26,792 nt of DNA, taken from positions 1 to 26,792 of the forward strand of contig CAYNQH010000001.1 of assembly GCA_964399255.1 (NCBI GenBank), in the 5' to 3' direction. The stretch is from an uncultured Methanosarcinales archaeon (GTDB lineage: Archaea; Nanobdellota; Nanobdellia; Woesearchaeales; CAYNQH01). A model generated the notes under the pieces. That model ran no database searches, was not told the DNA's origin, and was given only the letters and a program-made list of their open reading frames with translations. Positions 17,142-24,409 of this stretch are shown piece by piece. Position numbers and translations under genes: made by a program. Position 1 is the stretch's first letter. The number at the start of each line of letters is the position of its first letter.

Positions 17142-17156
17142 GAAAACATTTAAATA
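17142..17156 (+). promoter_or_regulatory. BRE + TATA promoter
   Basis: GAAAACA-TTTAAATA about 35 nt upstream of ATG 17191. AGAGGGG SD-like site at 17181-17187. Confidence 0.6.
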
Positions 17157-17190: not shown

Positions 17191-18195
17191 ATGGGCATCA
17201 TAAACGCAATAGTCATTAGTCCTGCTGTATCCTTAGCCAGCCAGACAAAGCTGAGTTTCTTGACATACCTCCTCTTGAGGATGAAGATAAGGATGGCAGC
17301 CTATTATCCTTTCTATATATCTATAAGCATAGGCCTGACAGCATTGCTCTTCCTTTTCTATTACCTTGCTATCTATAAGAAGCATCCTCATGTAGTCCCT
17401 CTTTTGGCTCAGATGCAGGGTGCTATGGACGCAAAGGCAGGGGCAGTCCAGGCAGTGCCTCAGAAAAAGAAGCTTGATGAGTTCAGGGAAGAAGTCCTTT
17501 CAAGGAACTATCAGATGCCTGGCAAGGATGACCAGAGAGTGAGGCTGCGCCAGGATAAGGTTGTGCTTCCGTTCCTCCGGGGAGAAGGGAGCGAAAGGGA
17601 GAAGGAGTTCTTATTCAAAGAGCTGGAGGATAAGAAGAAGCTTGAGCAGGTAAGGCAGAACCTATCAAGATGGAAAGGCCTTTTCTCAGCTTTTCTTGGC
17701 AAGCAGGAGGATCAGGATAAGGCAAGCATACTTTCTAAAATAGGGCTGTTGTCTGTCTCTTTGTCTGTGAAGGTAACAAAAGGCATAAGCTCCAACCAGA
17801 TAAGGCCTGAGGATGCGGTAGATATGTTCAGGAATCCTGACGAGAAGATGGCCAGGGCTGTGATGGAAAACCTTCTCCTAAATGAGGAAGAAGAATCTTT
17901 CGTGCTTCAGGCAAGACAGGACTATGCGGATCTTGTTGGTGAGGAAAGAGAGCTTGTAAGATCGATTGAGGAAGAGAGGAAGAAGCTTGAGCAGTTCAGG
18001 CTTGCGCATGCAAGTACAAGGCAGAGAGCTAAAGAGCTGTTCTCAAGATTTGATGATAAGCCTGCATCCGATGGTGCAGTCAAGAAAGCAGGGCCTCAGG
18101 AAAAGCCTCAGCCAAACTCTCAGCCAAACTCTCAGCCAAACTCTCAGCCAAACTCTCAGACTAGATATCCTTCAAGGCCTGGAGGCGATGCCTGA
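17191..18195 (+). CDS. Hypothetical membrane-anchored, charged coiled-coil protein (334 aa)
   Basis: TM segment ISIGLTALLFLFYYLAIY, E/K/R-rich helices, QPNS repeat tail. Has its own promoter and SD and overlaps the next ORF by 1 nt. No family recognised. Confidence 0.7.
   Translation: MGIINAIVISPAVSLASQTKLSFLTYLLLRMKIRMAAYYPFYISISIGLTALLFLFYYLAIYKKHPHVVPLLAQMQGAMDAKAGAVQAVPQKKKLDEFREEVLSRNYQMPGKDDQRVRLRQDKVVLPFLRGEGSEREKEFLFKELEDKKKLEQVRQNLSRWKGLFSAFLGKQEDQDKASILSKIGLLSVSLSVKVTKGISSNQIRPEDAVDMFRNPDEKMARAVMENLLLNEEEESFVLQARQDYADLVGEERELVRSIEEERKKLEQFRLAHASTRQRAKELFSRFDDKPASDGAVKKAGPQEKPQPNSQPNSQPNSQPNSQTRYPSRPGGDA
18107..18159 (+). repeat. 12-bp in-frame tandem repeat (CAGCCAAACTCT) x4
   Basis: Four perfect copies at 18109-18156 plus partial flanks; encodes QPNS x4. 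Confidence 0.97.
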
Positions 18196-21748: not shown

Positions 21749-22249
21749 TTATTTGTATGGAAGATTTTTTATCTCTTCCACGCTTTTCAGAAGGGAGAAT
21801 TTAGTCTCGAGATGCTGATTCTCAAGGGAGTCCAGGAGCTTGCCTAGCTTGGTTGGCTTTCTCTTTTCCAGCTTGATTTTTTTCAGCTTTGCAAAGAGCT
21901 CTAACTCCTTGTAGCGCACTGTCCTGAAGAGCTTTATGATGTTCTTGTCTTCTCTCTTAGGCTGCCTGCCTTTGAATGTCCTCTCTAAGAAATCTTCTAT
22001 CTCATCATCCAGGGTCCAGGGAAGGACTTTCTTGTCATGCCTTCCGGATTTCACGACCTTGATAGGCATGCTGATTATGCTGCTGATGAAATATCTTGAT
22101 AGGTCGTCTTTGATAAGGAGAACCTTGTTCTTCTCTACGGCCTTGGTCAGCCTTAATTCTTTCCTCACCCTGCTTTCTATATTTCTTAAGAAACAGGGGG
22201 TACAAAGCCTTTCAAAAAAGGCATTTTTACCGCATATTTTACAACCCAT
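21749..22249 (-). CDS. Degenerate, shortened TtuA/Ncs6-like (PP-loop family) protein lacking the SGGKDS loop
   Basis: CKIC...LCTPCF..IESRVRKELR zinc-finger start and the C-terminal KLFRTV..KEL..FAKLK...LLDSLE.QH..TKFSLLKS pattern, but no SGG.DS. Start set at ATG 22249 (track uses GTG 22291). Confidence 0.55.
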   Translation of the reverse strand: MGCKICGKNAFFERLCTPCFLRNIESRVRKELRLTKAVEKNKVLLIKDDLSRYFISSIISMPIKVVKSGRHDKKVLPWTLDDEIEDFLERTFKGRQPKREDKNIIKLFRTVRYKELELFAKLKKIKLEKRKPTKLGKLLDSLENQHLETKFSLLKSVEEIKNLPYK

Positions 22250-22327
22250 ATGGGACGAGAAAGGCTGTCCATTTAAAATTCTTTCCCTCACCCTTTAATT
22301 GTTACTACTCAAAAATACTTAAAAAAA

Positions 22328-22342
22328 CGAAAGATTTAAATA
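22328..22342 (+). promoter_or_regulatory. BRE + TATA promoter with no downstream plus-strand ORF
   Basis: CGAAAGA-TTTAAATA, the same form as the promoters at 14693, 17142, 24481 and 24908. Confidence 0.6.
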
Positions 22343-22364
22343 TAAGTTGCAATATATAGGTATT

Positions 22365-22497
22365 GTTGGGGTGCATATAATCTTATAATCACCTCTTTTT
22401 CCCTCGTAAATGCTCCTTGCGAGCATTTACAGGGTTTATGCTCACCTCTTTTTCCCTTGCAAAACATTCTTCGGAATGTTTTGCTTGGGTTTTTTTT
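22365..22497 (+). ncRNA. Candidate ~130-nt structured small RNA with two anti-Shine-Dalgarno-hairpin units and a U8 end
   Basis: TCACCTCTTTTTCCCT occurs at 22389-22404 and 22442-22457. Each copy runs into a 14-bp stem (22401-22434; 22454-22489), the second closed by C(UUCG)G. T8 at 22490-22497. Confidence 0.55.
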
Positions 22498-22582: not shown

Positions 22583-24409
22583 CTATTTTCTCAGCCGGAT
22601 ATACTGTTTTACCTTCTGCTTCTTAAGGCTATGATCCGCTTTGCTGCCTTTCTTCCTGATAATCAGTATAGCAGATAGGATACCTATAGCTATCCCTCCT
22701 ACCAGGGCCACTAGAGCTCTTGGCTGAGGCGCTATCCTTATGCTGAACCCGAAATTCTCAGGCTTTTTCTCTTCAAGGTATAGGCTTATATCGCTGAGCT
22801 CTATAGCATACTCTGCGTATAATAATGATGAGTACTTATCATTATCCTTCAATGATTGGCTGTATTCATGGTAAGAGTATCCTACTATCGGGAATATTTC
22901 ATTGTCTATCTGTCTCTGGATAGTCTTCCTTGCTGCCTTGAGCTTCTGGTCTATAAGCTGGTCCACTCCGTCTTTCTCTAAGCCTATAGTGCTAAGCACT
23001 ATGTCTATCTTTGCCTTTGCCTTGCTTGCCTTGAAAAGGCATAAGGCAAAGTCTTTGTTATTGCGGTCCGCGATAGCCACCTCTATGTCTGTCCTCACCC
23101 CTTCAACCAGTCCTGGGAAGAACAATGTGGAATATTGGTATCTTTCTTCTGCTTCATTGATCTTCTCAGTGCATGCTCTTTCAATCAATGATCTGTCGAG
23201 CATGAACTCTTTCCCTTCCTTGCCGAAGAAGCTGCTCCACGAGTATGCAGAGTAAAGCCTTTCTATAGCTGCTGCAAGCGAGTACAATGATCCGTCTGTT
23301 GAATTTCCTTCCCTCAATTCCTTTGCGCTTTCTATATGCGCTGAAGCTTCCCTTATCCTTTCCTTCACTACTGTGTATGCCTGGAGGTCAGTGATAGTGT
23401 CTAAGGTGAAGTTGTCTATCTCACTGTCCATCTTAAGGATGTTTGTGCTAGTGACATTTACTATGCCTAAGAATTCCGCATCAGAAAGCTGTAAAAGCTT
23501 GAGCTCCTGAAGCTCATAGTCTACATTTGCGCCATAGCAGAAGCTTGCGGCTGAATAGTACAAGTTATCCAGGTAAGCTTCCTTGGCTTTCTCCCTAAGC
23601 CTGAAAGCATTCTTCTCTATCTCAACAAATTCCTTGTCGATTATATCATGGTCTGTTATGTTGAACTCTGACACTCTTGCTTCAAGGAATAAAGACCTGT
23701 TGCATAATATCATGGCCAGATTCTGCATTATGCTCTTGTATTGGGGGTTCATCCCTATCTCTGAAGGTCCTTCCTCTAATTCTGTTCCCGCATAATGATG
23801 CAATGCTTCCTCAACATCACTGACTTCTATGACCTCTATGCCAAGCTCTCTTCCCATAGCTATGATATCTATGCTCTGGTTGTTCTCTGTTACTTTCCCT
23901 TCACCACGAGGCACAAGGACCTTGCTTATGTTATTCCTGGCAGCAGCCTCTACCTTTGCTCTTATGCCTCCTACAGTCCCTATTAGGTTGCCTGAATTTA
24001 TAGTTCCGGTAGTTGCTATATTGTCATCTATCTTGATATTCCCAAGAAGGGATATAGTCAGGATCGAGATGGCAGCTCCTGCACTTGGGCCTCCTACGAT
24101 GGCGGAGTTTGATTTTATAGTATAGAAGAAATCATAGCTGCTGCAGTCCTTGTCGAGGTATTTGCATGCTATCTCCTTGGCGAATCTTGTCGAGAACTGG
24201 GTGTCAAGCTTTGTTACGGGATAGGTCTCTATGAATACCCTTCCTGCCCCTTGTTTTATATCCAGATAAAGATCTGCTATGCTTCCTGTATAATTTCCGT
24301 TATTTTCGCTGACAGCAAGGAGCTTGAGGTGCCCCTGCTCTGCTGATACTACCTGGATAAACAGTAAGAATATCAGGAATACAAACAAAAATCCTTTTCT
24401 ACCCCCCAT
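22583..24409 (-). CDS. Archaeal secreted Lon-like (S16) serine protease without ATPase domain, C-terminal membrane anchor
   Basis: Signal peptide, VGGPSAGAA (catalytic Ser), TGTINSGNLIGTVGGIRAK (catalytic Lys), long helical region, TM ALVALVGGIAIGILSAILII, basic tail. Confidence 0.88.
   Translation of the reverse strand: MGGRKGFLFVFLIFLLFIQVVSAEQGHLKLLAVSENNGNYTGSIADLYLDIKQGAGRVFIETYPVTKLDTQFSTRFAKEIACKYLDKDCSSYDFFYTIKSNSAIVGGPSAGAAISILTISLLGNIKIDDNIATTGTINSGNLIGTVGGIRAKVEAAARNNISKVLVPRGEGKVTENNQSIDIIAMGRELGIEVIEVSDVEEALHHYAGTELEEGPSEIGMNPQYKSIMQNLAMILCNRSLFLEARVSEFNITDHDIIDKEFVEIEKNAFRLREKAKEAYLDNLYYSAASFCYGANVDYELQELKLLQLSDAEFLGIVNVTSTNILKMDSEIDNFTLDTITDLQAYTVVKERIREASAHIESAKELREGNSTDGSLYSLAAAIERLYSAYSWSSFFGKEGKEFMLDRSLIERACTEKINEAEERYQYSTLFFPGLVEGVRTDIEVAIADRNNKDFALCLFKASKAKAKIDIVLSTIGLEKDGVDQLIDQKLKAARKTIQRQIDNEIFPIVGYSYHEYSQSLKDNDKYSSLLYAEYAIELSDISLYLEEKKPENFGFSIRIAPQPRALVALVGGIAIGILSAILIIRKKGSKADHSLKKQKVKQYIRLRK

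Follow-up and report, generated by a model that had tools for sequence, protein, structure and literature searches.

The question raised by positions 22328-22497 of the 26,792-nt stretch of archaeal DNA analysed here (contig CAYNQH010000001.1; hereafter the window) is what a promoter serves when it points into a gap that appears to hold no protein gene, and what the two motif-plus-hairpin modules behind it might do. No plus-strand open reading frame (ORF) of at least 60 aa was found in the gap around 22328-22497, and since this gap is flanked by two minus-strand genes, the promoter at 22328 serves no protein gene. Our analysis identifies the segment as a promoter-led plus-strand gene for a non-coding RNA of about 130 nt, the transcription and start site of which are predicted from the promoter, and as a member of a large, uncatalogued RNA family of the Woesearchaeota and their sister orders, a class-level clade of the DPANN archaea. 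To our knowledge, the regulatory RNAs of DPANN archaea are essentially unknown. The probable point of action of the RNA is either the initiation of protein synthesis or the maturation of the ribosome.

The original prediction, made from the letters of the window, had described a promoter, an exact 16-mer repeated at a distance of 53 nt, two differing hairpins, a final T8 run and a 5' GGGGTG, and all of these were recovered at the positions given in the following lines, in which BRE is the transcription factor B recognition element and R1 the covariance model of the family introduced below.

22328-22334, plus strand: BRE, CGAAAGA, read in the sequence
22335-22342, plus strand: TATA box, TTTAAATA, read in the sequence; same position and orientation in 92 aligned family promoters
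22365-22497, plus strand: predicted primary transcript of about 130 nt, its start placed from the TATA box and its end at the T8 run
22368-22373, plus strand: GGGGUG, a 5' masking segment whose predicted partner is the first CACCUC
22385-22439, plus strand: module 1, with motif UCACCUCUUUUUCCC (from 22389), hairpin 22401-22434 and tail UUUAU; R1 score 45.4 bits, E = 9e-12
22438-22497, plus strand: module 2, with motif 22442-22457, hairpin 22454-22489 and U8 22490-22497; R1 score 60.4 bits, E = 1e-16

The promoter pattern RAAASNTTTAWATA occurs twice in the window (at 17143 and 22329), compared with 0.01 occurrences expected by chance. Its other copy, at 17143, precedes the ATG at 17191, and the leader there does contain AAAAGAGG, the sequence that had been proposed as a target site of the RNA. 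Counting about 26 nt from the centre of the TATA box, as in archaeal promoter geometry, transcription would start at 22365-22368. The 16-mer TCACCTCTTTTTCCCT lies at 22389-22404 and again at 22442-22457, and the two hairpins that follow its copies are built differently: hairpin 1 (22401-22434) consists of 14 bp with a single bulged C and a CUUGC loop, and hairpin 2 (22454-22489) of 3 bp, a UU/UU internal loop, 11 bp and a UUCG loop. The T8 run at 22490-22497, in module 2, is an archaeal oligo-T terminator. The minimum-free-energy fold of 22366-22497 amounts to -49.5 kcal/mol, with a z-score of -8.7; in this fold as well as in the centroid fold, positions 22368-22373 are predicted to pair with the CACCUC at 22390-95, and copy 2 is unpaired in the minimum-free-energy fold. 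The suggestion that the 5' end masks the first copy and leaves the second one free is thus reproduced, as a predicted structure.

The membership of this locus in a family became apparent from comparison with other genomes, in which the same architecture recurs in more than 140 loci, placing the feature far beyond chance. The window belongs to a metagenome-assembled genome (MAG) of 1.44 Mb in 299 contigs that is 86% complete. An initial survey of 40 related genomes by a 13-mer search revealed in most of them a common plan, consisting of a BRE/TATA promoter, a variable or absent 5' stretch, (A/U)AUCACCUCUUUUU, a CCC…GGG hairpin and UUU(U)AUA. A wider scan with a motif-plus-hairpin pattern, covering one genome per GTDB species, returned at least 120 loci, nearly all of them in MAGs titled Woesearchaeota, Nanoarchaeota or Pacearchaeota, and 137 modules were extracted from these loci. 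Alignment A1, comprising 64 sequences, served as the seed of R1, and within the GTDB order of the window, the genomes of which are titled Woesearchaeota in their records, this model matched 142 of the 151 genomes sampled, including 109 of the 115 high-quality ones, with one strong match per genome in most cases. In a sample of 151 genomes drawn at the level of the phylum, 131 contained a match at E <= 1e-9, among them 27 of the 34 genomes that share the class of the window genome but not its order.

The window locus displays the features that characterize the family, i.e. the invariant motif 5' of a hairpin, the covarying CCC/GGG hairpin with its U-rich tail, and a BRE/TATA promoter on the same strand. 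The window genome (G000) contains two such loci with three strong modules and one degenerate module in total; the second locus, on contig C221, has the same promoter and two modules, the stems of which are quite different from those of the window. The tandem arrangement that had been described for the element is found in these two loci but represents a minority form, since 117 of 127 loci carry a single module, and the motif often stands at the very start of the RNA. Tandem pairs were found in about 20 genomes in the order-level R1 search and in 10 of the 127 loci of the stricter pattern set. In agreement with the earlier impression that the element is not a known RNA family, an Rfam 15 scan of the window gave no match at the gathering threshold (best sub-threshold score 21.6 bits against a cut-off of 70), and a full-text literature search retrieved no paper combining DPANN, small RNA and anti-Shine-Dalgarno and none describing the family.

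Selection in this family acts on structure rather than on sequence, as had been proposed from the two differing stems of the window. RNAalifold applied to A1 yielded 14 consensus pairs, 11 of which show compensatory changes. Likewise, in alignment A2, for which 108 modules were realigned to R1, 93.6% of the cells are paired, compared with 65.5% in shuffles, and 432 cells with double changes stand against 122 in the shuffles. The covariation score of A2 is 0.757 versus 0.21 in the shuffles, none of which, out of 500, attained the score of A2, and sliding the partner columns as a control gave scores of at most 0.163. The outer three C-G pairs are nearly invariant. The fourth stem position is unpaired in 43 of the 108 sequences, which points to a conserved mismatch just above the CCC/GGG clamp.

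The same hairpins also indicate the strand. In the plus-strand reading 297 of 2070 pairs are G-U pairs, the plus-strand hairpin is more stable than its reverse complement in 107 of 134 cases (mean -22.9 versus -17.7 kcal/mol; Wilcoxon p = 2e-17), and the BRE is always found on the same side of the TATA box across the family. In the window itself the stems lack G-U pairs, and folding of both strands, a check proposed for it, gave equally good structures, so that the strand call there rests on the promoter and on homology. The direction of the promoter and the G-U pairs of the family support the claim of an independent plus-strand transcription unit.

With respect to the ends of the transcript, the distance between the end of the TATA box and the motif peaks at 20-24 nt (28 of 113 promoters). 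Given the usual archaeal spacing, this peak suggests a start 2-3 bases before CACCUC, and hence a basic form of some 58 nt, in which the motif occupies the extreme 5' end of the RNA. Extensions of 20-100 nt at the 5' end are present in other members, among them that of the window. When 57 of these extended members were folded, the motif was predicted to be masked (unpaired probability <0.3) in 18 of them, and no shuffled mean was that low; in about 20 of the 57 the motif was predicted to be more exposed than in the shuffles. Universal self-masking by the 5' extensions was therefore rejected, since roughly one third of the long variants mask the motif and one third expose it more, and self-masking, as far as predicted folds can tell, is recurrent but not general.

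A longer RNA-like element was observed in genomes that also have the standard RNA (L014 at about 1501 on the plus strand, and L015 at about 1501 on the minus strand). It opens with an identical CACCTCTTTTTCCC, continues with GGCTCCCT…GGGGGTGG…AGGGAGC and a T-run, and has no match in Rfam; it may represent a self-masked long paralogue.

What the RNA might do is suggested first of all by its motif. Each module combines an invariant single-stranded CACCUCUUUU(U)CC with a hairpin that covaries freely and is closed by CCC/GGG, and with a U-rich tail. None of the 64 aligned sequences departs from CACCTCTTTT or from the CC at the opening of the stem, and at least 90% retain the fifth T that lies between the two. 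The first eight bases of CACCUCUUUU, together with the preceding AU, are a copy of the 3' tail of 16S rRNA. The 16S gene is unassembled in the window MAG, and the tails were taken from relatives, the 16S genes of which end in GGATCACCTCC, confirming the match that had been claimed. Being identical to the last 16S bases in the relatives (GGAUCACCUCC), the motif is able to pair with Shine-Dalgarno (SD) regions. Moreover, in 49 of the 73 order genomes that have TGGATCACCTCC, this 16S end is directly followed by at least 5 T, so that the motif plus U5 resembles the unprocessed 16S end and not the mature tail only. The 16S tail and the D-site of its precursor (…GGAUCACCUCC plus a U-run) thus share with the small RNA the same eight bases, AUCACCUC, and the U-run after them. 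In contrast to the 16S tail, however, the small RNA is the product of a separate gene with its own promoter and no part of the ribosome, its motif is one C short, and it is located 5' of a hairpin, whereas the 16S tail lies 3' of helix 45. In 16S loci of relatives (L035-L038), the 16S gene was seen to be followed by a U6-U9 run and then by a tRNA gene, in some cases with an apparent intron.

Copies of the gene are also carried by viruses. The pattern matches 14 contigs in IMG/VR, about 7 of which have the full family architecture. In L170, L174, L175 and the L179/L180 pair the RNA gene is located between the genes for the terminase large subunit and the portal protein, on the same strand and with a host-like TATA box. 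Portal matches on the viral contigs range from E = 1e-26 to 1e-84 and terminase matches from 1e-43 to 1e-47, and these flanks imply that real head-tailed viruses carry the RNA gene. Viral carriage fits a general, trans-acting effect on the translation apparatus of the host.

Our tentative preference, to which we give just short of an even chance, is that the family represents trans-acting RNAs whose exposed CACCUCUUUUU pairs with ribosome-binding sites (RBSs). An exposed copy of the anti-SD motif, lengthened by U5, would pair with purine-rich RBS regions of the AAAAAGAGGUGAU type, and the RNA would thereby compete with the 30S subunit for mRNA. The U5 tract, the hairpin and the U-tail would confer stability and likely form a binding site for Sm-like archaeal proteins (SmAP, Lsm), and in the window the 5' GGGGUG would hide copy 1 and leave copy 2 active. 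The genome does use SD sequences, with AGGTG located 5-7 nt before start codons. The SD classes in G000 are nearly exclusive, with 180 of the GGAGG type, 175 of the GGTGA type and 14 with both, and GGAGGTGA is seldom seen in full. GAGGTGA is preceded by A in 82 cases, by T in 62, by G in 18 and by C in 16; since A rather than G is typically found before the SDs, sites of the AAAAAGAGGUGAU type would pair over more bases with the small RNA than with 16S rRNA. The motif is complementary to GAGGUGAU, and 25 RBSs in the genome allow at least 11 contiguous pairs. In addition, an Lsm gene was found in 30 of the 30 relatives searched, which makes the U5-hairpin-U-tail a plausible SmAP site.

Small RNAs (sRNAs) that mask RBSs have been described both in archaea, i.e. 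sRNA41 and sRNA154 of Methanosarcina mazei (review PMC5867862), and in bacteria, i.e. the cia-dependent small RNAs (csRNAs; PMC3091779). Like the RNA described here, sRNA41 and sRNA154 are intergenic archaeal RNAs with an anti-RBS sequence for which a block of initiation has been proposed or shown, and sRNA41 targets several sites of one polycistronic mRNA (PMC5867862). They are confined to Methanosarcina and to specific operons, and the anti-RBS sequence of sRNA154 is located in a loop (PMC5867862), whereas the motif of the present family is single-stranded, often 5'-terminal, invariant throughout the class and virus-borne; the comparison is based on the published descriptions. The streptococcal csRNAs are similar in that they are often multicopy and have an unpaired SD-complementary region by stem-loops (PMC3091779). 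However, they are bacterial, depend on CiaR-dependent promoters and have their motif between two stem-loops together with an anti-AUG (CAU) (PMC3091779), whereas the archaeal family has no conserved anti-start codon, many of its members start at the motif, and its promoters are of the BRE/TATA type.

Several observations weigh against masking of RBSs. The ten best predicted targets are functionally incoherent, including PPDK, thymidylate kinase, an MscS-like protein, DUF4349 and a surface protein, and a specific regulon was rejected because these ten best-matching RBSs belong to unrelated genes. Blocking hundreds of RBSs would require very high levels of the RNA. The invariance of 13-15 nt, including exactly U5, exceeds what a flexible mRNA seed needs and would suit a protein or ribonucleoprotein site equally well. 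Viral and host genes have similar proportions of the SD types, and a virus-borne copy would not obviously spare viral mRNAs; an escape of the viruses by GGAGG-type SDs, with hosts using the GGTGA type, was rejected since both use both. No SmAP gene was found in the window MAG with its 86% completeness. Finally, the sequencing runs that contain the window are DNA sediment metagenomes only, with no RNA run listed, and no RNA run is listed for the homologue L075 from Cock Soda Lake either; a metatranscriptome of this lake has been reported (PMC6704655).

The genes that surround the family loci bear on the other possible functions. In the window they are:

21749-22249, minus strand: conserved 166-aa protein with an N-terminal CxxC...CxxC zinc ribbon; divergent, ATG at 22249, own TATA box at about 22272-22280
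22583-24409, minus strand: 608-aa protein with a Lon_C (S16 peptidase) domain; convergent, Lon_C match at 2e-11 and Lon-family matches in NCBIfam

Clustering of the neighbouring genes of 128 family loci revealed three types of setting. In type A, which includes the window, a PLD/NucT-like gene and a gene for a zinc-ribbon protein of 166-175 aa are followed by the RNA and a convergent gene with a Lon_C domain. The Lon_C homologue is convergent and immediately downstream in 62 of the 128 loci, in about 38 of which its stop codon lies 26-125 nt from the start of the motif, and the cluster of the 166-aa protein is upstream and divergent in 31 of the 128. This protein matched no Pfam or NCBIfam family; look-alikes in the Protein atlas are clusters with TtuA_LIM_N, the N-terminal zinc finger of tRNA thiolation enzymes, with the PP-loop domain missing, an observation that we regard as a lead only. 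In type B, which includes the C221 locus of the window genome, the RNA gene is divergent from an operon of RIO1 kinase and a Dim2/Pno1-like KH protein (RIO1 at L003 94-789). In type C, ScpA is found upstream, and S24e, RpoE and a PIN-domain gene are convergent downstream. Dim2 lies 0.5-2.8 kb from an R1 match in at least 13 genomes of different GTDB families, compared with about 1 expected by chance; because synteny is inherited and ancestry shared, these 13 families do not represent independent events.

The settings of types B and C suggest a different role, in which the RNA would serve as a decoy or sponge of the 3' end of pre-16S rRNA (the D-site, …AUCACCUCC plus a U-run) and would bind or titrate Dim2/Pno1 or Nob1 or affect the Rio1-dependent late maturation of the 30S subunit. 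Such a decoy, which we consider possible though rather unlikely, would adjust the last step in the biogenesis of the small subunit, or else keep Dim2, Nob1 and Rio1 in store or recycle them. Nob1, Pno1 and Rio1 act together at the D-site (PMC4231747), and the archaeal Nob1 cleaves D-site RNAs that are short and single-stranded (PMC3326319). A decoy would also be consistent with the match of the motif plus U5 to the unprocessed 16S end, with the complete invariance of the 13-15 nt and with the lack of a coherent mRNA regulon, and it fits the data about as well as the pairing with RBSs, which we infer. On the other hand, half of the loci adjoin the unrelated Lon_C-domain gene, the proximity to Dim2 is reduced in weight by the shared synteny, the motif lacks the second C of CCUCC, and its position at the 5' end before a hairpin is the reverse of that in 16S rRNA. 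In its full form, in which the RNA mimics the unprocessed 16S 3' end (AUCACCUC plus U-run), sponges or chaperones Dim2/Pno1, Nob1 and Rio1 and provides these tiny symbiotic archaea and the viruses carrying a copy with a switch of ribosome production instead of one of single mRNAs, we regard the proposal as doubtful. RNAs that sponge proteins are well established, with CsrB/RsmZ for CsrA and 6S RNA for RNA polymerase as examples. They offer a functional analogy for a decoy only, through repeated motif-plus-hairpin modules that imitate the natural ligand of a protein, whereas the small RNA has only one or two modules and no sequence relation to them.

The frequent convergence with the Lon_C gene raises the question whether the RNA is a cis-antisense partner or a 3'-end element of this gene that controls the stability of the protease mRNA, the motif being incidental. 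A read-through antisense RNA is plausible insofar as the minus strand has no T-run after the hairpins until the T7 at 22321-22327. Yet an antisense pair needs no invariance and the motif never varies, family members are likewise found in other settings and in viruses that lack a Lon_C gene there, and in the window 85 nt separate the RNA from this gene, which together make such a role improbable. We attach scarcely any weight to the notion that the locus has no RNA function of its own and is a terminator, a repetitive extragenic palindromic (REP)-like repeat, a 30S decoy made from the minus strand or a gene for a small peptide. A hairpin followed by a T-run resembles a terminator, but archaea do not require a hairpin for termination, no gene that could be terminated precedes the element on the plus strand, what follows the hairpins on the minus strand is GGGAAAAAGAGG, and the element has a conserved promoter of its own and is limited to two loci in the genome instead of being dispersed; neither the terminator nor the dispersed repeat, the outcomes that would have spoken against the original prediction, was therefore found. 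The 30S decoy on the minus strand, offered there as an alternative, is contradicted by the G-U asymmetry of the family stems and by the direction of the promoter. Short ORFs do run through this segment (two of 35 and 43 aa on the minus strand and one of 25 aa on the plus strand), but peptide coding was rejected, since they have no residues in common apart from those that the motif itself encodes, and the frame shifts between the window and L003. Two further candidates were dismissed, both in view of the 117 of 127 loci with a single module: a CRISPR mini-array, since the hairpin arms cross the boundary of repeat and 'spacer', and tandem repeats of the ToxI type, for which there is no plus-strand ORF downstream.

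If the masking of RBSs that we tentatively prefer were true, the family would constitute a lineage-wide, global brake on translation of a kind so far known only from a few species-specific sRNAs; if the RNA were a decoy of pre-16S rRNA, ribosome maturation would have its first known case of regulation by an RNA mimic. Within one of the largest DPANN groups the family is nearly ubiquitous. Its structure is under strong selection, it contains an exact copy of the functional sequence that is most conserved in translation initiation, and its virus-borne copies suggest a lever in the takeover of the host. It merits an entry in Rfam, which would improve the annotation of thousands of MAGs.

One further element of the window promoter is shared with the upstream regions of other family members:

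22301-22309, plus strand: promoter-upstream element GTTACTACT, also conserved upstream of family members

The same element, T(T/A)ACTA(C/T)T, is located 12-26 nt before the BRE/TATA at no fewer than 20 promoters of the genome. GTTACTACT is thus a general promoter feature of this organism and not specific to the small RNA, and its role as an RNA-specific regulator site was rejected on the ground of its presence at these ordinary promoters. Many ordinary promoters show a palindromic form, T(T/A)ACTA(C/T)T…A(G/A)TAGT(A/T)A (e.g. G000:C22:1005, C264:914 and C232:1718), and in some family promoters an inverted copy, GAGTAGTAAC, lies 3' of the TATA box. Perhaps a general transcription factor of the Woesearchaeota binds to the palindromic element.

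A separate observation was made near the second locus of the window genome, at positions 1075-1620 of L003 (G000:C221), where two direct repeats of ATCTACAAGA and three of AAATATCATRAT lie upstream of a TATA-like GATTTAAATA. Behind it, about 450 nt without an ORF and without a match in Rfam extend to a DnaG primase gene, and this stretch could be a regulated leader or another non-coding RNA.
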